Virus record (IMG/VR): IMGVR_UViG_3300010376_002105 | Location: 1 to 35,107 of that record | DNA: 35,107 nt | Source of the DNA: a virus | Lineage: Duplodnaviria; Caudoviricetes | Reading direction: 5' to 3' (one strand) | Shown here: positions 16,412-35,107 of the stretch, in pieces | How positions within the stretch are numbered: position 1 is the stretch's first letter | Layout: every line of letters begins with the position of its first letter | Translations under genes and position numbers: made by a program | The notes under the pieces: generated by a model | Told to the model about the DNA's origin: nothing | Database searches by the model: none | Seen by the model: the letters and a program-made list of their open reading frames with translations, nothing else

Positions 16412-16737
16412 CGGCGGCCGAGCTTTGGGCGAGAACCTGGTCGCACGCGATCGTCGATCTCGGGATCTCCGAGGCGCAATTCTGGCATATGACGCTGGCG
16501 CAGCTCGAGCTGCTTCACGATCGCTTTGAGCGCCGCGAGCAGCGCGAGGAGCTGCTCGTCGGCCTGCTCGCATCGGTTACGGCGAACTATTCGATGCGGG
16601 GTCCGGAAGAGCCGCTCTCGGTTACCGACTTTATGTCGCCGCGGTATCGGCCGAAGCCGGTCGAAGAAGACGAGGCCGTTCTCGCGGCCAGGTTCGACGC
16701 ATTCTTTAAGAATGCGGCCAGGCCGAGCCAAAGGTAG
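16372..16737 (+). CDS. tail assembly chaperone T segment, probably made as a G-T fusion by -1 frameshift
   Basis: The -1 frame is open from 16372 and reads ...AELWARTWSHAIVDLGISEAQFWHMTLAQL..., so the typical LG.S..FW.MT motif lies upstream of the first ATG (16489). Confidence 0.7.
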   Translation, partial: TEGRRRPSDGSELTAAELWARTWSHAIVDLGISEAQFWHMTLAQLELLHDRFERREQREELLVGLLASVTANYSMRGPEEPLSVTDFMSPRYRPKPVEEDEAVLAARFDAFFKNAARPSQR

Positions 16738-16751
16738 CCAGGCGGGCAAGC

Positions 16752-18052
16752 GGGTAACTTCCGGTTGTCGGTTATCCGACCAGATAACGACAGAGATAAG
16801 CAAAATGGCTAAGAATCGATAGAAGGTAGCCTGTTGCTCATTTCACCGTTCGGAGCGCGTTAATGTTTCGTATTCGTTCAGAGGCACTCGTTACGGCAGT
16901 TTATTTGACGGCATTGTTAACGAGCGTTCCATACACCTCAGCTACGGCCCAGCAGGTTGCGGTTATTCCTGTGCCCGATCAGGCAACTCCCTACACATTT
17001 CACGTGACGAAGAGCGAAGTGGTGATAGACGTTATCGCGGTTGATGCCCAGAATCGTCCTGTCCTCAACCTGGCTCCCGCAGATTTGAAACTCTTCGAAG
17101 CCGACCCACCGCGCAAAACGGCCAAGTCAATTGCAAGCCTCCGCGTCGTCGATCCGTCTTCTTCCCCGTCAACGCCATCTGCCTTGCCGCAGACAGATTT
17201 CCTCGGCCTTGTCCATGGCAGCTGTATGCTTACCTACATCGCGCACTACCAACTTGCCTATGACCCTGGACCCGATGGATCGATACCCGGTATTCACACT
17301 GTCGAAATCCAGACGAAACGCCGGGGTGTAAGGCTTTTCTACCGCCACGGCTATTTTGTCAGCCCGCCAATTGCTCCCGAAGACCCCGGGCACAAGCCGA
17401 GGATCCTCGCCACAGTTATTGCGACGACGCAAACGAGCAACCAGCCGGTCACTCCGAAGTTTCAGACAGACAGTGTAGCGGGCTTCTCGGCTCAGAGGGC
17501 GCTCGACTATGCGGTCAACTCGTTCGGATCAACCGTGCCCAACGCAGGTTCGCTCTGTGCAGATGTGTACGAGATTCCAGTGGAGACAAAACGGCTCCCC
17601 GACTTTAAGCGTCTGAGTTCAATCGGTATCATCTACACAGACTTCCTGGCGGTCTCGCGTGCGGCGAACGTCGTCGGCATTGGGCTCCCTAATATAACCA
17701 CTCGGACCGAATGGATCGGCCTCGACTATTACGGCAGAATCTGGATTACCCATCCTGGCTCCTACGAGTTCCAGATGATCTCCGATGACGGTGCCTTGCT
17801 CGAAATCGACGGTAAGCCCGTCATCGACCTCGACGGAATCCACGCTGGCAAAATGGGGTCGGGACAGATCACTTTGGAAGCGGGTCCGCATACACTGCAT
17901 ATCCCTTATTTTCAGGGACCGATTATGGCCGTATTAACGGTTTGGGTAAAGGCCCCAGGCGAGCCGCTGACCATCTTCGACACGCGAAGTTTCGCTCCGC
18001 AGCCTGCGACGACTATGTCAGGTCGATGAGCATCGCAAACCGGAAGTCACCC
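16752..18052. mobile_element. inverted-repeat-bounded single-gene cassette inserted in the tail operon
   Basis: GGGTAACTTCCGGTT (16752-16766) and AACCGGAAGTCACCC (18038-18052) form a 14/15 inverted repeat; the interior lacks the phage word bias. Confidence 0.65.
16863..18029 (+). CDS. secreted protein: acidobacterial VWFA-related N-terminal segment plus C-terminal PA14 domain
   Basis: Signal peptide (..SATA|QQ); F.V...V.IDV..VD...RPV.NL...D..LFE; Y.LAY.P...H.VEI...R.G..L.YR.GY; PA14 signature WI...Y.GRIWI..PG.Y.F...SDDGA.L.IDG..VID.DG.H...YFQGP. Confidence 0.8.
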   Translation: MFRIRSEALVTAVYLTALLTSVPYTSATAQQVAVIPVPDQATPYTFHVTKSEVVIDVIAVDAQNRPVLNLAPADLKLFEADPPRKTAKSIASLRVVDPSSSPSTPSALPQTDFLGLVHGSCMLTYIAHYQLAYDPGPDGSIPGIHTVEIQTKRRGVRLFYRHGYFVSPPIAPEDPGHKPRILATVIATTQTSNQPVTPKFQTDSVAGFSAQRALDYAVNSFGSTVPNAGSLCADVYEIPVETKRLPDFKRLSSIGIIYTDFLAVSRAANVVGIGLPNITTRTEWIGLDYYGRIWITHPGSYEFQMISDDGALLEIDGKPVIDLDGIHAGKMGSGQITLEAGPHTLHIPYFQGPIMAVLTVWVKAPGEPLTIFDTRSFAPQPATTMSGR

Positions 18053-18106
18053 ACACTTCGACAAACCTTCGCCCCTCAACCGTCACCGAGTGGCATTGAC
18101 CGTCGC

Positions 18107-18115
18107 TGTTATACT
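18107..18115 (+). promoter_or_regulatory. extended -10 promoter (TGtTATACT) for the small moron gene
   Basis: TG-N-TATACT upstream of an AAGGAGG RBS and ATG 18139. Confidence 0.5.
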
Positions 18116-18138
18116 CTCCCGTTTCGAAAGGAGGGTAT

Positions 18139-18315
18139 ATGGCAGGCAGCATCTTCGAGGAGTATGCAACAGAGCAGGCGGCCGAGGACTCGCTCAGGGA
18201 AAGAGTCGAGAACGAGGCTCATCGGATCACGGTGCTTAAAATCGGGTTCGGCGTTTTCGTCGGGAATCTGTTCACGGCGATCGTCGTCGCGATTGTTTAC
18301 GCTCTTATGAAATAA
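18139..18315 (+). CDS. 58-aa membrane moron protein, superinfection-exclusion candidate (not in the ORF track)
   Basis: AAGGAGG RBS; MAGSIFEEYATEQAAEDSLRERVENEAHRITVLKIGFGVFVGNLFTAIVVAIVYALMK*; acidic N-terminus and one C-terminal TM. Confidence 0.75.
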   Translation: MAGSIFEEYATEQAAEDSLRERVENEAHRITVLKIGFGVFVGNLFTAIVVAIVYALMK

Positions 18316-18337
18316 CGAAAAGAAATCTGCATCAGAG

Positions 18338-18362
18338 AGCCGCTCTTCGGGGCGGCTTTTCT
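18338..18362 (+). terminator. intrinsic terminator of the moron
   Basis: AGCCGCTC-TTCG-GGGCGGCT-TTTCT with a cUUCGg tetraloop. Confidence 0.8.
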
Positions 18363-26944: not shown

Positions 26945-28771
26945 ATGTCGAAAGCAATCACAGAAGTCGCGATCGGCGCCGCAGCGATCGGCGTCTCGAT
27001 CGCGGTCCCTGGTCTCGGGATCGCGATGCCGTCGATCATCACGAAAACGCTGCTGTCGCTCGGCGCGTCTGAGCTCATGACCGGCCTGGCCGACGCGCTC
27101 AAGAAAAACCAGGGCGGATTATCGGTCGCCGTCACGACGCCGATCGGGCCGTGGGCTTACGTCTACGGGACGCAGAAAGTCGGCGGCGTCGAGATCTTCA
27201 GACAAAGCAATAACAATACCGGCGTGGCCGGCGCGACGACATCGAACTGGAAACAGCTTCACAGGGTTTACGTTCTCGCCTGCCATCCGTGCGCGCTCGG
27301 TCCCTGGCAGTTGCGGATCGACGGCAAACAAGTTCTGATGAATCCGGATACGGCGACGACGGCGAGCTTTAAAAGCTACTCGCCGACGCAGGTGCAGGCG
27401 AATATATTGTCGATCTTGCGCGACGCAGATGGACTCGTGACCGTAAAGCTCGATCGCGATTTCGGGAATCTCGACGGCCAGTCGATACAGATTACCGAGT
27501 GCAGCGATCACTCGTTTAATCAGATCGCGATCGTGACGCTGCCGGATCCAAGCGACGGAACGGTTTTTCAGTTCGTCTCTGGCGGGCCGGTTACTTCGGT
27601 CGCAAATTCCGGCCAGGCCTGGTCGCTCTTCGCCGATTATCAAGATAAGATCCGGGTCGAGTTTCTCGACGGTACGCACACGTCGACGTTCGAAGTGCTC
27701 GGGAACGCCGGCACGGCATGGGGGCCGAACGATAAGCTGCTCGGCCGCTGCGCGGTTTACGTGCAGATGGGTTACGACTCGACGATCTTTCCGTCGCAGA
27801 TCCCGAACGTTAGCTTCGTGATCGACGGCAAAAACGACATCCTCGATCCGCGCACGAATACGCGCGGCTTTACCAGGAACGCCGCGCTCTGCATCGCCGA
27901 CTATATGAGCATTCCGCGCACGAAAGGCGGCTTCGGCCTGGCGATCGGAACGGATCAGCCGACGGCGCAGCTGATCGCCGCGGCGAATATCTGCGACGAG
28001 ACGGTCGATCTCGCTTCCGGCGGCCACACTAAGCGATACACCTGCAATACGTTTTTTCAGCTCAACGAAACGCGCGGCACGATCCTGTCGAAGATGCTCT
28101 CGAGCTGCGCCGGCCGCATCGTTCGGCAGCAGGGGCAAAGATGGGTGATGCCTGGCGCCTGGCAGGCGCCGACGCTCGAGCTCTACGATTCGGATCTGAT
28201 CGGGCCGATCGAGTGGAACGGCCGACTCTCGATCCGCGCGACGGCGAACGCGATAAAAGGAACGTACGTCTCGCCGGAAGGTGCCTATCAGCAGGCCGAC
28301 GTGCCGGCGTATATGCAGGATTACAAGCACGGATTCGGCGCGATGACGGATCCCGGCCAGGGCGATAAATGGCTGCTCGAGGATAACGGCGAGCGGCTCT
28401 TTCAAGAGGCGAGCTTCCCCTGCACGGATTCCGCGGCCGAAGCGCAGCGGCTCGAGAAAATCGCGCTGCTGCGTCTGAGGCATCAAGGCCGCGGCCGGAT
28501 CCGCGCGAGCATGAAGGCGTATCGCACGATCGCGACCGACACGATTCATCTCTATCATCCGCGCTGGAATACGCCAGGTACTCAAGACTGGAATCCGCGC
28601 ACGCTCGAGGTCACGAAGAAACGGCTCGTCATAGACAAGTCGGCCGGCGCGCCGACGATCGCCGTCGAGCTCGAGGTCGCCGACACAGGATCCGATATTT
28701 TCGACTGGTCGACGGCCGAAGAGCTGACCCCAGCCGGCTATCAGCAGACATACACCCCGGCGAGTCTCTGA
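26945..28771 (+). CDS. tail tip / host specificity protein (lambda J-like), possibly C-terminally truncated or split
   Basis: YVYG..KVGG, W....KL.G...VYV...YD...FP..IPN.SF..DGK..I.DPR, N.ALCIADY, AAANICDETV, RYTCN, N.IKGTYVSP. Confidence 0.88.
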   Translation: MSKAITEVAIGAAAIGVSIAVPGLGIAMPSIITKTLLSLGASELMTGLADALKKNQGGLSVAVTTPIGPWAYVYGTQKVGGVEIFRQSNNNTGVAGATTSNWKQLHRVYVLACHPCALGPWQLRIDGKQVLMNPDTATTASFKSYSPTQVQANILSILRDADGLVTVKLDRDFGNLDGQSIQITECSDHSFNQIAIVTLPDPSDGTVFQFVSGGPVTSVANSGQAWSLFADYQDKIRVEFLDGTHTSTFEVLGNAGTAWGPNDKLLGRCAVYVQMGYDSTIFPSQIPNVSFVIDGKNDILDPRTNTRGFTRNAALCIADYMSIPRTKGGFGLAIGTDQPTAQLIAAANICDETVDLASGGHTKRYTCNTFFQLNETRGTILSKMLSSCAGRIVRQQGQRWVMPGAWQAPTLELYDSDLIGPIEWNGRLSIRATANAIKGTYVSPEGAYQQADVPAYMQDYKHGFGAMTDPGQGDKWLLEDNGERLFQEASFPCTDSAAEAQRLEKIALLRLRHQGRGRIRASMKAYRTIATDTIHLYHPRWNTPGTQDWNPRTLEVTKKRLVIDKSAGAPTIAVELEVADTGSDIFDWSTAEELTPAGYQQTYTPASL

Positions 28772-28811
28772 ACCGTGTCTTCGGCGACAGATCGTCGACT
28801 CAGTAATGTCT

Positions 28812-31265
28812 TTATATGTTACCTTGAGCAATCAGCTTATTCCGGAATGCATCTGACAGTCGTGGAGGCGAATAGAGAATGCGATCAAGCCATGTGACAA
28901 CATCATAGAAGTAACTGTCGGCCTGGATGTACTTAGTGAGCACATCGTCTATTTCGCTTTTCTCATGGCGCCGAATCAGAGCAGACAAAGCCCCAATTCG
29001 AAACGCTTTCTCTTTATCGTGCAAACATTCTCTTAAGACCTGATCAAGATTGAAGGATGTCTGCGAGATTAGCCAAGACATCGCGATCTTCGAGAGACCG
29101 CTATTCTCGCTAAGGACCAGTTCACGCCACGTTTCCAATGGATCTGAGGAAAGTTTCAGCGCACCTAGGGCTGCTTTCTTTTGTCGCTCACCGTAAGTAT
29201 CAAATGCCATCTTTAGCAGGTCTTGCACTTCATCTGAAGTTCCAAATTGTAGGACAACCTCAAGAGCGGCATCACGTGCACGATATGTGTCTTGCTTCAG
29301 ATAGGACTTTGCAATCTTGACACCTTCAGGAAACGGGTTCTTTGCAAGCCCTCGCAATGCAGCTTCCGCGAACTGCTCGCCGATGAATTGGTCCAGATTC
29401 TCGAACGATTCCTCAATTCTTCTTACTTCTTCAGGTCCCTGCGTTTCTCGAACTGGACGGAGGCTCTCTTCCCTGATTCTGCGAAATCCATCCGTGAAAT
29501 CTTGGATAAGAGTTGGCGCGATACTCTCGAAGTGATCTAGGGCGAGAGCTTCATAGGCTAAGCGCCCTTCAATTGAGTACCAATTGACAACCTCTTCTAG
29601 ATTATCTTTGCTGAAGGTACGAAAGAAACTGAGAATGACTGCATCATCCTTCGGGATCGAGTCATCTTCGTGCCCTCCTAGCGCCCCGACAAGCCCACCA
29701 TAGAGGGCGGCGTGCTGAGGATCGGGATCTTGCAATGCTTTTCGGACAAGATCAAGCGAAGGGAGAATTCCATTCTTCGCCAAAACCTGCAGCGAAATAG
29801 CTCTCACGGGTAGGGATGAATCGACCGAATATTTTTTGGCGATTTCGACCGAAATCTTTTCTCTCCTTGAGAGTTCCTGTAGGCACAATTGCCGTATCTG
29901 TTCCCATGAGCCATCCAATCCCTTCAGAAGAACAGCTTCACTTGCGTTGGATACATTCTGCTTCAAGACTTTCATCCAATCGGAAGAGATAGACTCATCT
30001 TTTGAAATCGCCTCTGTTAACGCATCATCGGGATGGAGGCGAACCAATATTCGAAATCTTGCGTCCTCCGCGCCGTTTATGATCCAGGAGTCCTTCTCTC
30101 CGGCCTTAAATTCCTCAAGAAATTTGATTGTCGAATCATCTCCAACTTCCGCAAGAAGCTTAAAAGCACTCTCGCGAACCCACAAAGATTCATCCTGGAT
30201 TGGGAGCATTGAAATCTGATGTTCCGGGATTGCAGCTTTCAGAAGAGTGAGGAGTTCCAATGCGCCTATGCGGACTTCGTCCGCGCGGTCATACATCGCA
30301 AGTTCAAAAATCCGGTTTTGGGCTTGAACATCGTCCTGATCTTGAAACCAAAACCATCCCGGATTCACATCCCCACTCTCACCGACGAAAGAACGAATCA
30401 ATTGAAGCTTTTCATCTTCTGCCGGTTTCAATTCATTTCGATGCTTATAGAGCAGATTGATTTCATGTGTATCAATAAGAGAATTCGTATATCGCTTAGA
30501 GATGAGTGTTTCCGACAGTAGAAAGAGACGCGCTACCTCAAATTCACTGAGGGTTCCCTCGCGTTCAAAGAAGCGGAGTCCATCGCTGGACGCTGCGCTG
30601 ACAAGCGTCTCTGATGTTGATTTGAGTTGAGGAGGAAGATAATTCGTCAAATCGGACGTTCCAGCGATCTCGATGTCTGCAGTTCCAACCAGATTAGAAC
30701 TCGATAGAGATGTTGCGTTCTTTTCTGGGATCTCCGGATGGTGAGCTGCAAATTCGAAGAGGTATTGGGGAAGCCAGAGATGGAGTTTGTCTCTCCAATC
30801 ATCGGAATGTTCGACTCTTGCGAATTTCACTTCATTGAGTTGAATCTGCTGCTTTTTGAACTCGAGTACCTTCTTTAACTGATCTCCGGGGTCTTTCGTT
30901 CTGCTTTCTTCCACATCTTTGAAGAACAGACAGATTTCGGGGCTTCCACTCCGTCTTCTGTTCGACTTTGCGCGCTCAAACTCTTCTTCAAACCCGGACG
31001 AATATCCTCCTGTTGGTTGACCCCACCTTTCCCAAAGGAGGCCGATGAAGAGATCGCAAGTGTCCAGAATCGGATTGATTGAATCCTGAGGTCTACCGAA
31101 TAGTGGAGGCGTGTCTTCCCAGAGACGAAGCTTAATGTCCCATCCCTGTCTGTTTGCGGTCGACTTGTTAACAAGTTCGACAACACGTTCGGCGATCTCT
31201 CTTTCCTTTTGAACATCACTCGGAGAGGCGAGAAAAATAGTAAAAAGCTGCTGAGTTCTCTGCAT
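28812..31265 (-). CDS. DUF4062 (TIR/deoxyribosyltransferase-like) domain plus HEAT/ARM-like repeats; defence candidate
   Basis: IFLASPSDV..ER, WE...P..GRPQ..IN..L..CDLFIGLLW.RWG.PTG...SG.EEEF; repeated VR..A...L helical units; lower GC. Confidence 0.8.
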   Translation of the reverse strand: MQRTQQLFTIFLASPSDVQKEREIAERVVELVNKSTANRQGWDIKLRLWEDTPPLFGRPQDSINPILDTCDLFIGLLWERWGQPTGGYSSGFEEEFERAKSNRRRSGSPEICLFFKDVEESRTKDPGDQLKKVLEFKKQQIQLNEVKFARVEHSDDWRDKLHLWLPQYLFEFAAHHPEIPEKNATSLSSSNLVGTADIEIAGTSDLTNYLPPQLKSTSETLVSAASSDGLRFFEREGTLSEFEVARLFLLSETLISKRYTNSLIDTHEINLLYKHRNELKPAEDEKLQLIRSFVGESGDVNPGWFWFQDQDDVQAQNRIFELAMYDRADEVRIGALELLTLLKAAIPEHQISMLPIQDESLWVRESAFKLLAEVGDDSTIKFLEEFKAGEKDSWIINGAEDARFRILVRLHPDDALTEAISKDESISSDWMKVLKQNVSNASEAVLLKGLDGSWEQIRQLCLQELSRREKISVEIAKKYSVDSSLPVRAISLQVLAKNGILPSLDLVRKALQDPDPQHAALYGGLVGALGGHEDDSIPKDDAVILSFFRTFSKDNLEEVVNWYSIEGRLAYEALALDHFESIAPTLIQDFTDGFRRIREESLRPVRETQGPEEVRRIEESFENLDQFIGEQFAEAALRGLAKNPFPEGVKIAKSYLKQDTYRARDAALEVVLQFGTSDEVQDLLKMAFDTYGERQKKAALGALKLSSDPLETWRELVLSENSGLSKIAMSWLISQTSFNLDQVLRECLHDKEKAFRIGALSALIRRHEKSEIDDVLTKYIQADSYFYDVVTWLDRILYSPPRLSDAFRNKLIAQGNI

Positions 31266-31388
31266 GTTGTTTCTCAAAATTATCGAGGGATGGCCTCAGA
31301 AAGGCAAAGAATCGTCTCTAGGACGCGGTAATGTTGACTGCAGGTTTTACGGAAATGAGCAATTTCTTGATCGGTTCGCCCAATCCGA

Positions 31389-32330
31389 TTACGTCTCTTT
31401 GACCACGTCTTGTGGCTTCTTGTCGCGCCGCAATCCGACGAACGACGCGTGCCGCAGCCGGTCGTCCGGTGTCCACTCGGCGAACTCGATCTCGGCAACT
31501 GCCTGAGGTTTGAGCCACTGGCATTCCTTCATCTTCTCTGCAGTGATCCCCTGTCCCCATACGCCGGCGCGCTTGTCCGGCAGGTTCGCGAAGGGACACT
31601 GCGCGATCTCCAGCTGCTTGACCTGGTCGTGCACCTCGCGCCGCATCGGCGGATTGAATCCGGCTCGGACGCTGCCGGCGAATCGCAGCTCCTTTCCGCG
31701 GTAGAAGCCGACCAGGAGCGCGTCGAGACCGAGGTAACTCGGCGTGTAGCCGCCGATCACAAACTCCTGCCGGCGATCGAAGCGCAACTTCACCCATGAG
31801 CCCGATCGCCCTTCGCTCACGTAGGAGCTGTCAGCTCGTTTGGCAACAATTCCCTCGAGCCCCTGCTCTCTGACGAAGCGTTCCAGGCCTGCCAGGTTGT
31901 CAGTCCACTCTGCGACCTGAACGTGACTGCTGCGCTTCACCGTCGACCGGAGCAGCGCGCGACGATCAGACAGCGGCAGCGTCTTGACGTCCTTGCCCTT
32001 GTGGACCAGGATGTCGAACGCAAAATACATCAGGTGGGCCGAGCCGCTGCGGTAATTCTGCAGCAGGTTGAAGCGAGGCAGGCCATCCTCATTCAGGGCC
32101 ACCAGCTCACCATCGAGCACCGTTTCCGATGGCAGCTTCTCGAGCTCCAGCGCGATCGGCATGAACTGGCTGGTCAGGAGCTTCCCTTGCTTTGAGTAGA
32201 GGATGACATGATCGGTGCGTACGGCTACGGCGCGAAAGCCGTCGAGCTTCACTTCATACGTCCACCTGCCGCCGGTGGGCAGCTTCTTCACGGCGACGGT
32301 CTCCATCGGCTTTATGAAGCGGGCGTTCAC
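31389..32330 (-). CDS. ligD: ATP-dependent DNA ligase (LigD ligase domain only)
   Basis: Motif I EVKLDGFR, LDGELV, FAFDIL, EGIVAKR, WVK, EFVIGGYT, V.EIEF.EWT...LRH.SF.GLR.DK. Confidence 0.93.
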   Translation of the reverse strand: MNARFIKPMETVAVKKLPTGGRWTYEVKLDGFRAVAVRTDHVILYSKQGKLLTSQFMPIALELEKLPSETVLDGELVALNEDGLPRFNLLQNYRSGSAHLMYFAFDILVHKGKDVKTLPLSDRRALLRSTVKRSSHVQVAEWTDNLAGLERFVREQGLEGIVAKRADSSYVSEGRSGSWVKLRFDRRQEFVIGGYTPSYLGLDALLVGFYRGKELRFAGSVRAGFNPPMRREVHDQVKQLEIAQCPFANLPDKRAGVWGQGITAEKMKECQWLKPQAVAEIEFAEWTPDDRLRHASFVGLRRDKKPQDVVKET

Positions 32331-32351
32331 GACCCGATCATAGACTCCCCC

Positions 32352-33302
32352 TCAAGGGCTGGGTTCGATGCCGATCCGATCATTGACAGCCGCTCGAATG
32401 CGCTGCTTGGAACCCAGGTATCGTTCCGTGGTCTGAATGGAGACGTGGCCGAGCAGGAATTGGATCTGCTCCAACTCGCCACCGGCAGCTTGGCATAGTC
32501 GAGCGCATGTCCGCCTCAGGTCATGGGGTGCAAGCCTGACGACGCCAATCTTTTGGGAGTTGTGCTTCACGATGTGCCAGACCGCCTTCTCGGTCACTCC
32601 GTCTCCCCAGATCGTTCCTACCCGGCTCACTCTGCGGAAAACCTTTCCCTGTCGGATTCCCGCTGAAGTGAGCCATTGATCCAGCTCAGCCCATACCCAA
32701 TCTGGGATTGGCACTGTTCGGATGTGTCCGGCCTTGCCGACAAGGTCAACGATCGCCCAATGCTCCTCGCGTTGCTGAATGTCGGTCAGCCTAAGATGTG
32801 CCGCTTCGCGTCTTCTCAGGCCGCATGCCAGCAACAAAGCAAGCAGCGCTCGATCTCGCTTTCCTTTCAGCACCCGACTGTCTGGCGCCTGCCACAGTGC
32901 TTGCCCCTGCTCTGGCGTGAGCCAATTGCCGAGGCGAACCCCGAGCTTCTTTAGCCCCTTGACCCGGCGGATGCCTGCAGCAAGGTCGGAACTGAGCAGG
33001 CCGCAGTCGGCGGCTTCATACGCCAGCCGTCGAACCGCGCCTAGTCGGAGGTTGATTGTGCCCGGTGCGAGCATCCTCGATTCCAGATGGCTTCGGTACC
33101 GGAGGACTACAGTCCGATTGAGCGCCAGACGCGGCTCAGAGCAGTACCATTCAATAAACTCATCGATTGCGTGCTGGTACCCGCGCTGGGCGTCAGGACT
33201 CGTAAGGCTGTTCAGGACCGCAATTTTGGCATGTTCAAGATCGGGAAGCCGCAGAACCCTGCGCGGCTTCTTTCGCCTGTCTCGGGGACGCTTCGACTTC
33301 AT
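32352..33302 (-). CDS. tyrosine recombinase / phage integrase family
   Basis: RDRALLALL..CGLRR.E, GK.G..R.VP, HDLRRTCA, QFLLGH.S..TTERY catalytic residues; the start could be 33335. Confidence 0.95.
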   Translation of the reverse strand: MKSKRPRDRRKKPRRVLRLPDLEHAKIAVLNSLTSPDAQRGYQHAIDEFIEWYCSEPRLALNRTVVLRYRSHLESRMLAPGTINLRLGAVRRLAYEAADCGLLSSDLAAGIRRVKGLKKLGVRLGNWLTPEQGQALWQAPDSRVLKGKRDRALLALLLACGLRRREAAHLRLTDIQQREEHWAIVDLVGKAGHIRTVPIPDWVWAELDQWLTSAGIRQGKVFRRVSRVGTIWGDGVTEKAVWHIVKHNSQKIGVVRLAPHDLRRTCARLCQAAGGELEQIQFLLGHVSIQTTERYLGSKQRIRAAVNDRIGIEPSP

Positions 33303-33384
33303 GATTCGGTGGACCTCCAGCGCCAACAGAATCATGGTTTCGCGGTTCCCGACTGGGCCGTGCTAGGCGGGTCTGCAATCTGTT

Positions 33385-33506
33385 CCCGCGTAGTCCGGTT
33401 TACCGACAATCCGACCGGAATCTTGATATGCTACGCTCTCGGTGAAAGTTATGGCGAAAAGTTGGCGAAGCGCCCGCGTAAGTTCCGGTTAGCCGACAAC
33501 TCGGGA
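33385..33506. repeat. two related recombination-site-like motifs upstream of the recombinase
   Basis: CCCGCGTAGTCCGGTTTACCGACAATCCGACCGGAATC (33385-33422) and CCCGCGTAAGTTCCGGTTAGCCGACAACTCGGGA (33473-33506). Confidence 0.7.
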
Positions 33507-33609
33507 ACTATCGACGACAATACGTCCAGAACCCCCAATCCGAGCGCAAAATCGTCCTCCTTCTGCCTCGAGACAAAGTGGCCACTCTCGACCGAATGTG
33601 CACGACTTG

Positions 33610-34527
33610 TCAGCCATAGAAGTTCTGCAGGCCCCAGAAATTTAAGCCGTGCACAAGTACAGCAGGGAGCAGGCTCTTGGTGCGATGGGTGAGGTAGCCC
33701 CAAAGAAAACCAATCGGCATGATCTGCAGAGTTGATAGGAACGCAGAAAGCCAAGTGCCGTGGAGGTTTGCTGCATGGAATTCCGGTATGTGCAAGCACG
33801 CCCACAAGAATGTCGCTGTCACGAAGCCCATGCCGGTGCTCCTGAATGCGGCACCTAGACGCGTCTGCAGGAGCATACGCGTGAACTCTTCACTGAGAGC
33901 TGCCTCCACAAAGCCAATCCATAGCAGCCACCACAGACCCCAGGAGTGAATGAGCTTCTTCCAGAGAATCCCACCGGGCGCAACAACAAAAGCCATGGTC
34001 CCGATGAGTCCCACTACGACGGGGCCAAGGTACCAGCGTTTCATCGTGATGCCCAGTTCCCGAAGTTTGTATCGATACCCAAAAAGATACAGTAGCGCCA
34101 GACCGATCGGGAACACGAACATCATCAGGACGAGAAAGATCCCACGTTCGATCGGAGGTAAACCAACAGGTCCAGCCCAGGGACCGCGAAAGCGAAGGAA
34201 GAGACCACAGAAACCGAGTGCCGTAAATCCCAAGATGACGGCCGCTTCCGTGCCGACGGAATGATGGATCGGGAATCCCACCGCTGCCTGGGAGCTGGAG
34301 GTGACGAAATCCGTTACGAAGACACCGAGCCAAATAGCAGCAATATATCCAATCGCGTGCGGTATCTGATTTGTGCGAGCGCCCAAGTCTATAACGCGTA
34401 CGCATGCAGCGAGGACGATAAGCGCGGCGATGGGATAGCTGCGGACTATACCGTACTGGCGGCAGAAGGCGCAACGGATGCGGTCTTCTACCGAGAGCCG
34501 AGGCGTGGTCGAAGTAGCACTGCTCAT
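33610..34527 (-). CDS. CPBP family intramembrane glutamic endopeptidase (CAAX protease/Abi)
   Basis: Multiple TMs; EEFTR.LLQ, LWA.LH, G..WGYL..RT.SL...V..HG..F motifs; start placed at the ATG inside the flanking repeat. Confidence 0.9.
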   Translation of the reverse strand: MSSATSTTPRLSVEDRIRCAFCRQYGIVRSYPIAALIVLAACVRVIDLGARTNQIPHAIGYIAAIWLGVFVTDFVTSSSQAAVGFPIHHSVGTEAAVILGFTALGFCGLFLRFRGPWAGPVGLPPIERGIFLVLMMFVFPIGLALLYLFGYRYKLRELGITMKRWYLGPVVVGLIGTMAFVVAPGGILWKKLIHSWGLWWLLWIGFVEAALSEEFTRMLLQTRLGAAFRSTGMGFVTATFLWACLHIPEFHAANLHGTWLSAFLSTLQIMPIGFLWGYLTHRTKSLLPAVLVHGLNFWGLQNFYG

Positions 34528-34594
34528 TCCGCTAGCCCAGCATAGCGCAACGATTGAAATAGGAGACAGATAGCGTAACCGCACCGCCTGTAAC

Positions 34595-34683
34595 TCCCGA
34601 ATGACCGGCAAACCGGAAATTATGCCGGATTGTGGGACCAACTTCCGGTTAACCGACTAACCGCCCGGAATCCGACAACTCGG
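34595..34683. repeat. back-to-back cassette-end motifs between the CPBP and TIGR03435 genes
   Basis: 34595-34625 is an inverted copy (24/31) of 33476-33506; 34645-34672 is a direct copy (24/28) of 33395-33422. Confidence 0.75.
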
Positions 34684-34690
34684 TCAACCA

Positions 34691-35107
34691 CTAGTTCTCA
34701 GAGGGTTGTTGGATGCGATCAATGACGAGGGTTTTGATGGGACCGCGCCCACGTTTGATCTTGAGGCCAAGGCGGTCCACTACTCTGAGGGCTGCGGTGA
34801 CAAGCTCGTGGTTGTCAGGATCGTCGGGCGGTAAATAGAAATCATATGACCCGGTAATTCCGGTTTCGTTCAGAACTGGAAGTTGAAGATACCGGCTAAG
34901 CCTCTGCGCGAGGTAATCAGTGCTGGTGTTGATGCCCATCGCCTCTCCATCAGCAATCCCGCCCTGCTTCGCAACCACAATGGCCCGAGGATCCGATGCA
35001 GCGTCTTTTGGTGGCTTGAGTTGGAGCGGCTTGTTGCCAAGGGTGAGTATGTAGACTTCGCCTTCCTTTGTTTCAAAGTGGGACTTAAAGCCGAAGCGAT
35101 CGCGGAG
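34691..35107 (-). CDS. TIGR03435 family protein (acidobacterial), 5' end outside the window
   Basis: L.DRFG.K.H.ETKE..VY.L; LA..LS..L..PV.NETG.TG.YDF.L; A....LGLK....GP...LVID.I..PSEN. Confidence 0.9.
   Translation of the reverse strand, partial: LRDRFGFKSHFETKEGEVYILTLGNKPLQLKPPKDAASDPRAIVVAKQGGIADGEAMGINTSTDYLAQRLSRYLQLPVLNETGITGSYDFYLPPDDPDNHELVTAALRVVDRLGLKIKRGRGPIKTLVIDRIQQPSEN

Follow-up and report, generated by a model that had tools for sequence, protein, structure and literature searches.

Two alternating classes of dyad sites divide accessory DNA of Acidobacteriota into modules that are probably exchanged by an adjacent Xer-like recombinase

In integrons, accessory units of mostly one or two genes form arrays near a tyrosine recombinase; some arrays are orphans that lack the enzyme, and attC sites are targeted by mobile elements. 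In the dif modules of Acinetobacter Rep_3/OrfX plasmids, as described in the accessible sections of PMC13141974, accessory genes lie in either orientation between short dyads (pdif sites) with a 6-bp spacer, 2 module types alternate, and modules are excised in pairs, or joined as a cointegrate and then resolved, at sites with matching spacers. The XerC-like protein of Tn6022 is a mobile simple tyrosine recombinase with a dif-shaped site nearby; this site is a hybrid in which the XerD half is still perfect, and it depends on host XerD, according to the accessible part of PMC11014353. Acidobacteriota belong to the most abundant bacteria in soil, and the accessible parts of PMC3469429 and PMC3174227 describe their genomes as swollen by small-scale duplications and as carrying unexplained 'phage integrase' genes; PMC3469429 counts 27 XerD-like integrases in Solibacter, and its accessible part describes no sites. 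Here, we analyzed a virus record of 35,107 bp (IMGVR_UViG_3300010376_002105, hereafter the window), at the right end of which short dyad sites separate a tyrosine recombinase gene, a CPBP/Rce1-like protease gene, and a truncated TIGR03435 gene. The module system to which these sites belong is real, widespread, and apparently unpublished; it works in the manner of dif modules, although it qualifies neither as one of them nor as an integron. An array of alternating R and L sites cuts accessory DNA into modules, which are probably exchanged by the adjacent Xer-like recombinase, and this enzyme would act only between sites of the same class.

To describe the sites, we used a model learned only from the recombinase-adjacent sequence of 80 other loci (81 seeds). 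The sites are 32-bp dyads formed by a 13-bp arm, a 6-bp spacer, and a second 13-bp arm, and they fall into 2 spacer classes, R (GCCGAC-type) and L (GCCGGT/GCCCGT-type). The 5 best scores of the model in the window (31.0, 28.5, 24.2, 20.4, and 16.8 bits at positions 33479, 34591, 34639, 33389, and 33500, respectively) all fell within 33389–34670. The sixth-best score across the 35 kb was 12.9 bits, and 20 shuffled windows produced no score of 20 bits or more and a best score of 16.9. A first-pass annotation of the window had counted 5 related sites here; they are indeed the 5 top scores, although only 4 are strong (S1 to S4, Table 1) and the fifth (33500–33531) is weak and overlapping. The inverted repeat that it had placed around the CPBP gene (33476–33506 against the reverse complement of 34595–34625) was recomputed at 24 of 31 positions and its direct repeat (33395–33422 against 34645–34672) at 24 of 28, and the sequence AACTTCCGGTT is present at 34640–34650. 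Read along the + strand, the elements follow one another as recombinase, R, decayed L with linker, R, CPBP, L, 16-bp linker, R, TIGR03435. The linker that follows the decayed L site extends up to 33478; a contig of sequencing run X4 also has this linker, there behind an intact L spacer (33446). The S3-S4 doublet measures 48 bp from start to start, which falls in the common class of 44 to 49 bp, and the 2 spacers, read on the same strand, are alike in 5 of 6 bases. The ends of the CPBP module carry different spacers, GCCGAC (R) and GCCGGT (L), which share their first 4 bases and differ at 2 of 6 positions. The L-R adaptor (34608–34671) reached a summed contig depth of 1,627 in run X1 and 556 in run X4, with flanking genes at about 10 or less.

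Table 1. Coordinates of sites and genes in the window.
Feature	Position	Strand	Score or evidence
Decayed site, one base short, left of PA14 gene in tail operon	16755–16785	+	
PA14-domain gene	16863–18029	+	
Decayed site, one good arm, degenerate spacer and outer arm, right of PA14 gene	18018–18049	-	
LigD-type ATP-dependent ligase domain gene, directly behind recombinase	31389–32330	-	
Tyrosine recombinase, core-binding and catalytic domain, 316 aa	32352–33302	-	likely start 33302
S1, class R, spacer ACCGAC at 33402–33407, upstream of recombinase	33389–33420	+	20.4 / 21.9 bits
Decayed class-L site, outer half of one arm and one-off spacer left	33420–33451	-	sequence reading
S2, class R, spacer GCCGAC at 33492–33497, R end of CPBP module	33479–33510	+	31.0 / 34.0 bits
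Weak overlapping class-R site, spacer GACGAC, likely remnant	33500–33531	+	16.8 / 15.8 bits
CPBP/Rce1-like intramembrane protease, cargo gene, 305 aa from likely start	33610–34527	-	PF02517, E 1.3e-10
S3, class L, spacer GCCGGT at 34609–34604, L end of CPBP module	34591–34622	-	28.5 / 34.4 bits
16-bp linker of empty L-R adaptor (doublet)	34623–34638	.	
S4, class R, spacer ACCGAC at 34652–34657, R end of next module	34639–34670	+	24.2 / 28.8 bits
TIGR03435/DUF3738 gene, 3' part, cargo of next module, ends at contig end	34691–35107	-	

The recombinase of the window has an intact catalytic set (R163, K190, H260, R263, H286, and Y295), and across 50 sequences R163, K190, R263, H286, and Y295 are invariant and H260 nearly so. 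Its predicted model contains a helical N-domain and the catalytic domain only. This corresponds to a simple tyrosine recombinase as defined in the accessible part of PMC8138268, which has an R-K-H-R-H/W-Y set and no arm-binding domain. The predicted fold matches XerA, Cre, and IntI at like template-modeling (TM) scores of about 0.45. An IntI-type insertion, which the first-pass annotation had also failed to see, is absent: alignment to XerA/XerD needs no insertion, and the IntI model TIGR02249 reached 39.6 bits against a cut-off of 265 and matched in 2 pieces. The XerC and XerD models gave 103 bits against cut-offs of 335 and 330, and the protein falls in a clade of its own, 28% to 30% identical to host XerC/XerD, in a quick tree whose outgroup placement is unreliable. 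We found at least 7,999 protein relatives (7,999 of 7,999 scored), most of them 315 to 317 aa long. With regard to a role as integrase of the resident phage, viral contigs and GenBank phages yielded no relatives of the recombinase, and the related phage records are short fragments, in none of which an integrase was present.

The same site grammar recurs around recombinase relatives in other genomes. In a scan of genome contigs, at least 577 of 607 candidate stretches held such relatives; 80 loci were kept, 78 of them titled Acidobacteriota and mostly located on large chromosomal contigs. De novo expectation-maximization on the flanks in other genomes returned one motif behind the stop codon (log-likelihood 496) and a second, related motif about 80 bp before the recombinase start (446), and control flanks reached 107. 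The downstream seeds had the spacer GCCGAC in 30 of 41 cases, and the upstream seeds had GCCCGT, GCGCGT, GCTCGT, or GCCGGT in 29 of 40. A census of 217 strong-arm sites that was blind to the spacer was likewise dominated by the R and L classes. The refined model detected 272 sites of at least 14 bits in 1.22 Mb and 2 in shuffled DNA. A site adjoins the recombinase gene in 70 of the 80 loci, which together with the flank motifs bears out the proposal that the sites mark the ends of modules and are linked to this family of acidobacterial recombinases. Among the 193 sites not adjacent to the gene, 160 have the same polarity as the gene, and R and L alternate in 207 of 294 neighbour pairs, compared with 139 in permuted data (161 in the best of 2,000 permutations). 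Cargo lies R to L in segments of 0.5 to 5.6 kb, and L-to-R segments are mostly empty 31- to 150-bp adaptors or the recombinase gene. Their lengths are bimodal (n = 74), with 38 segments of 31 to 148 bp, 26 that are the recombinase unit of about 1,045 bp, which is enriched in these counts because the loci were chosen for carrying the recombinase, and 10 of other sizes.

As the first-pass annotation had expected, the sites are intergenic and bound accessory genes: 265 of the 272 lie between genes as predicted by a heuristic caller (coding about 72%). Among 103 cargo segments, some from overlapping loci, 53 hold a single gene, in either orientation (27:26). Annotation was obtained for 127 of 128 cluster representatives of the cargo, 71 with a family match and 56 with none. 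The families include kinases (the largest cluster, 16 proteins), ADOP permeases (7), PadR (5), TIGR03435, and HAF repeats, as well as hydrolases, methyltransferases, regulators, and some metabolic enzymes; no ribosomal, replication, or translation genes were found among the annotated cargo. Several local features were observed at the sites. In Occallatibacter savannae (genome G003), at L084:17573–18895, L087:16858–18185, and L090, the recombinase and a 79-aa gene behind it lie between 2 outward-facing R sites, and the polarity of the array switches there; the window recombinase likewise has R upstream. Group II introns occupy the identical base of the L-site arm in 3 unrelated loci (L041:19341, L050:8078, and L090:3879), with RF02005 and RF00029 confirmed in L050 and L090, and an intron lineage that targets these L sites is possible. 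IS110-family elements were found just inside sites (L096:9662, L100:15110, and L002:11142–12242), and 2 IS110-family copies in genome G002 are 98.7% identical and start 40 to 48 bases from the spacer. tRNA genes numbered 1 in 35 loci, a set without any tRNA-linked pattern.

Homology between loci breaks off at the sites. For recombinase modules of at least 85% identity, 66 of 94 non-edge alignment ends lay within 25 bp of a site, and for the non-recombinase class, which includes second recombinase copies, 10 of 26 were near one; the background was 1.2%. Among 31 module alignments of at least 80% identity, 4 cargo pairs run from site to site, and many of the others are insertion sequence (IS) copies, overlapping loci, or partial matches. 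Two of these cargo copies are within G003 (L084/L090, 1.6 kb, 97.5% identical; L087/L091, 0.5 kb, 97.1%) and 2 are between genomes (L041/L103, 2.3 kb, 87.7%; L002/L029, 0.9 kb, 93.2%). The copied modules have different neighbours from the spacer outward. At base level, identity begins or ends at the spacer, R in some pairs and L in others, and in L087/L091 the shared stretch also takes in the linker as far as the preceding L spacer, which is the unit expected from L x L excision. The window's own modules were searched for in assembled contigs of 4 sequencing runs (X1 to X4). Run X1 contained the CPBP module as a single unitig (33484–34619), and in the same run a 98%-identical TIGR03435 flank departs from the window inside the S4 spacer, at its second base (34653), and continues with 602 unlike bases. 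In X4, a contig of 55 bp spans S4 with the same join as the window. Only scattered pieces of the region were present in X2 to X4. Joints that connect 33504/33509 to 34595/34598 were considered as empty alleles and rejected; their intervening sequence is undefined, and we read them as other modules with like ends. A search of 30 congeneric genomes for syntenic alleles of the G003 island matched edge genes and short pieces only, without a filled/empty pair.

We infer that the family recombinase probably exchanges the modules. Four subunits would bind the arms and exchange strands within the spacer. Because strand exchange needs matching spacers, R would recombine with R only and L with L only, as in Cre/lox, Xer/dif, and the dif-module models in the accessible part of PMC13141974. 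Recombination between direct repeats of the same class would release a circle with the cargo and one adaptor, which could re-enter at another site of that class. Alternatively, joining at R followed by resolution at L would swap the cargo, which would amount to a natural cassette exchange. The empty adaptor would preserve the alternation without a second gene. The CPBP gene, between R at 33479 and L at 34591, would be swapped or carried off with a neighbouring adaptor, and would not flip alone. The first-pass annotation had regarded this gene as a mobile or invertible cassette bounded by inverted repeats, and its ends are indeed inverted, with spacers alike in the first 4 of 6 bases; moreover, pdif sites tolerate one spacer mismatch, as reported in the accessible text of PMC13141974. 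However, the CPBP spacers differ at 2 positions, the 2 classes are fixed across the 80 loci, R-to-L polarity was kept in all 4 end-to-end cargo copies, and no strand-switch joint was found in the 4 runs, in which contig assembly limits detection by dropping rare forms. Inversion of the CPBP gene is therefore highly improbable. Since the module ends are of different class, the module is likely swappable rather than invertible, although the near-match of the spacers may leave room for rare cross-class events.

The recombinase unit is itself compact, about 1,045 bp from site to site (26 of 74 L-to-R segments), and it has new neighbours on both sides. Together with the great abundance of doublets in soil runs (a depth of 1,627 over 34608–34671 against about 10 on genes), this would suit an IS-like transposon formed by L, the recombinase, and R, with empty doublets as miniature derivatives and the genes between as bystanders. 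This is very unlikely, because cargo segments that lack the enzyme were copied together with their own arms, and exactly between the R and the L spacer, because both spacers are constant across loci when a target-derived spacer would vary, and because strict alternation and shared polarity speak against such a transposon. The doublets raise a further possibility, namely an integron-like system with a different integrase, in which each doublet would act like attC and fold in single-stranded form. The doublets are imperfect palindromes of 63 to 180 bp, many fold into hairpins, group II introns and IS110 copies lie in or beside sites, and over all 63 doublets the inner-arm pairing was 8.32 against 7.14 in permuted data (p 0.0005). 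Within one genome (21 doublets), however, pairing was 8.81 against 8.86 permuted (p 0.61), indicating that the overall excess reflects lineage-specific arm sequence. Crossovers map to both R and L spacers, cargo orientation is random, the recombinase has no IntI insertion, and the window doublet does not form an L-R hairpin, so that we give a folded attC-like site only a slim chance.

To see how the sites are distributed, strict R and L patterns were searched in 5 genomes, where the matches were clustered. In G003, 45 of the 51 listed strict-pattern matches were within 10 kb of another, with 7.5 expected. The full model found 117 sites in 398 kb around strict matches, and evenly chosen control regions totalling 400 kb held none. 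The sites thus form islands; occurrence genome-wide beside core genes, which the first-pass annotation had named as the result that would contradict its proposal, was not seen. Repeated pattern matches in genome G315 were discarded because they are identical copies with poor scores and likely another repeat. Across 121 Acidobacteriaceae genomes, a set that includes the unpublished genomes G207 and G223, the L pattern had 280 matches compared with 55 for a reversed control. The dyad shape and intergenic position of the sites would also fit a transcription-factor operator or a repetitive extragenic palindromic (REP)-like repeat unrelated to recombination, and the strict pattern is present in 90 of the 121 genomes (control pattern in 47). 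Such elements would hardly stand at 3' as well as 5' gene ends in 2 alternating classes, cluster in islands, be missing from all 400 kb of control DNA, and coincide with homology breakpoints with an accuracy of a few bases; this explanation is extremely improbable. The recombinase family itself was detected in 24 of the 121 genomes; in a phylum-wide set of 201 genomes, 7 had it. The expected co-occurrence of sites and recombinase appeared in one test: with G003 left out, at least 4 L matches were present in 9 of 23 genomes with the gene and in 16 of 97 without it (Fisher p 0.02).

Exchange by the family recombinase has to be weighed against several observations that speak the other way. The association just described is looser than first implied, since the rank test on the same genomes gave p 0.13, a modest link, and those 16 of 97 genomes have at least 4 strict L matches without a detected family member. 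Sites therefore persist in genomes without the family gene. In G268 (a single 4.69-Mb contig; L198–L204), L-R modules coexist with only XerC/D-like matches at 28%; these orphan modules resemble integron arrays without an integrase. Conversely, a Granulicella plasmid carries a 65%-identical recombinase homologue and no site by either of our 2 site models. Of 76 loci with full flanks, 35 have L upstream and R downstream of the recombinase, and 41 lack the full L/R pair at the thresholds used. The window recombinase has R rather than L upstream and no closing site downstream, so that the window's copy of the array is partly decayed. No sites surround any of the 3 CPBP homologues found (47% to 70% identical). 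This search covered metagenome contigs, with 3 loci of which one is the source contig, and 401 genomes of the class, with 1 match. Finally, the empty alleles, circles, or inversion joints of the CPBP module that the first-pass annotation had proposed to look for did not appear in any of the 4 runs, where contigs drop rare forms.

Sites without the enzyme, and one XerC-like arm, keep host XerC as a rival catalyst, alone or paired with the family recombinase, whose gene would then be a partner or passenger. A comparison by eye shows the left arm of S4 (34639) to agree with the XerC arm predicted for Solibacter at 9 of 11 positions; with a dif-like site in G315 it agrees at 7 of 11. The 6-bp spacer fits as well, and the accessible part of PMC11014353 offers the precedent of a mobile XerC-like protein that works with host XerD. 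However, none of 778 arms reaches 9 of 11 matches to the D arm, only 5 of 778 reach 9 of 11 or better to the C arm, 2 of 778 keep the inner ATAA of dif, and the XerC/XerD loci themselves have no sites. The first-pass view that the sites match neither attC nor dif accordingly holds for the GTTRRRY core and the XerD arm, with the XerC-like arm of S4 as a qualification. In addition, the arms change with the recombinase subclade inside one host family. A divergent subclade (clade B, 15 loci) has the same 2 spacer classes and different arms, also at sites away from the gene. The model for clade A detected 221 sites in 52 clade-A loci and 2 in the 15 clade-B loci, and the model for clade B detected 26 sites in clade A and 38 in clade B, the last number being partly circular, to the detriment of our argument, because this model was trained on clade-B loci. 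As arm sequence tracks the recombinase subclade, the family enzyme is favoured over host Xer, whose catalysis of the exchange appears indirectly disfavoured and which we consider unlikely. A sister subfamily, 43% to 50% identical, was also noted. It has many, often broken, copies in G730 (L188, L193, L195–L197, and L208–L212), where its members are 45% to 50% identical and no R/L sites were found at its gene ends, and it is present on plasmids of Acidisarcina, Paludibaculum, and Deinococcus (H2–H7).

Modules also lodge in phage tail operons, although here in decayed form. The 2 further site copies that the first-pass annotation had placed at 16752 and 18038 are related to the others but decayed, one with a base missing and the other with a degenerate spacer and outer arm. 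They stand on either side of a PA14-domain gene (Table 1), and the gene and both sites sit between the tail chaperone and the next tail gene. In an 88%-identical phage (L156, 7963–8457), the PA14 gene and both sites are absent. Phage contig L165 (3560–4891) has other small genes there together with L-type sites, namely an open reading frame that resembles Flp pilin by sequence and one more. A one-armed L-like site is found in this slot in L157 (9645), and the other related phage contigs inspected have no sites there. The slot behind the tail chaperone (16729–18338 in the window) is a variable site of this phage group. The PA14 gene is likely an old cargo module lodged in the tail region, and the allele of L156, which lacks any site, indicates that a phage att site was not the point of first entry. 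The prophage would be a vehicle and landing ground rather than the origin of the system.

The remainder of the window is consistent with a phage. Its + strand encodes an HK97-type terminase, portal, protease, capsid, and tail genes, and after the tail-fibre gene at the right end the coding switches to the - strand, in the order DUF4062/HEAT gene, LigD ligase domain, tyrosine recombinase, CPBP gene, and cut TIGR03435 gene. The source contig (L081, 40,297 bp) has the same right end and 5.2 kb more on its left. The CPBP gene likely starts at 34527, as homologues align from residue 16 to 23. The LigD gene occupies the slot where most recombinase relatives carry an R site; this stand-alone ligase domain begins 21 bases past the recombinase stop, and a 55% homologue lies near an array in L214. 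No second recombinase-LigD pairing was present among the loci collected, and no closing site was found left of the LigD or the DUF4062 gene, even at low threshold. The DUF4062 and HEAT-repeat gene (28812–31277, - strand) has a low G+C content (about 47%), and residues 9–188 at its N-terminus match PDC-S60, a candidate model for defence (E 5e-29). In the site region, searches for Rfam families, promoters, and terminators gave nothing above chance, and 28000–35107 contained no Rfam match above cut-off.

Site-specific modules offer a concrete and testable route for gene flow in Acidobacteriota, and their sites provide a searchable tag for accessory genes, as attC does for integrons. A compact recombinase with 2 natural heterospecific sites is also the layout that engineers build for cassette exchange, and cultured Occallatibacter savannae AB23, with several arrays and intact enzyme genes, is ready for the bench. 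It is conceivable, though we hold it only tentatively, that, next to integrons and dif modules, these arrays represent a third natural class of gene cassettes, in which a single self-encoded recombinase, 2 spacers that exclude each other, and empty adaptors carry out cassette exchange among chromosomes, plasmids, and phages; they might then help to explain the long-noted expansion of accessory paralogues (Ser/Thr kinases, PadR-ADOP pairs, and TIGR03435) in Acidobacteriota. No description of the system was found in the literature covered, in which subscription journals are largely missing and which includes the accessible parts of PMC3025954 and of the IS1202 preprint (bioRxiv 2022.12.17.520857); the accessible parts of PMC8138268 and PMC10250229 make no mention of Acidobacteria.

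The system shares with Cre/lox the 13-bp arms and a site next to the recombinase gene, and the enzyme's predicted fold is nearest to XerA and Cre. It shares with engineered recombinase-mediated cassette exchange, as outlined in the accessible part of PMC10250229, the 2 heterospecific spacers around a payload. Unlike the near-perfect 13-8-13 palindrome of lox, a single resolution site, it has a 6-bp spacer, degenerate arms, and tens of copies per genome in natural arrays. It is integron-like in its arrays of small accessory units near a tyrosine recombinase, in its orphan arrays, and in the parasitism of its sites by group II introns and IS110-family elements. Unlike in integrons, a GTTRRRY/RYYYAAC core is present in only 10 of 389 sites, there are 2 crossover classes, the IntI insertion is lacking, cargo orientation is random, and no attI-like single entry point was seen in the arrays. 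The mobile simple recombinase of Tn6022 with its nearby site is a further parallel, but neither acidobacterial arm is a XerD arm, and the sites stand in alternating arrays. The closest likeness is to dif modules, with which the system has in common accessory genes between short dyads, the 6-bp spacer, 2 alternating module types, cargo in either orientation, and the kind of exchange proposed here. Nevertheless, the sites do not combine a XerC arm with a XerD arm, and our model scores the dif-like site of G315 below zero; a dif pattern was found in 1 of 5 genomes (G315), so the arm comparison used that dif-like site and 2 predicted ones. The window is a prophage-type record rather than a Rep_3/OrfX plasmid backbone, and the acidobacterial modules lie in chromosomal islands, plasmids, and prophages. 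Lastly, polarity and pairing are apparently set by 2 fixed spacer classes and not by C/D arm order, the dedicated recombinase gene is itself a module, and one of the 2 module types is mostly an empty adaptor.

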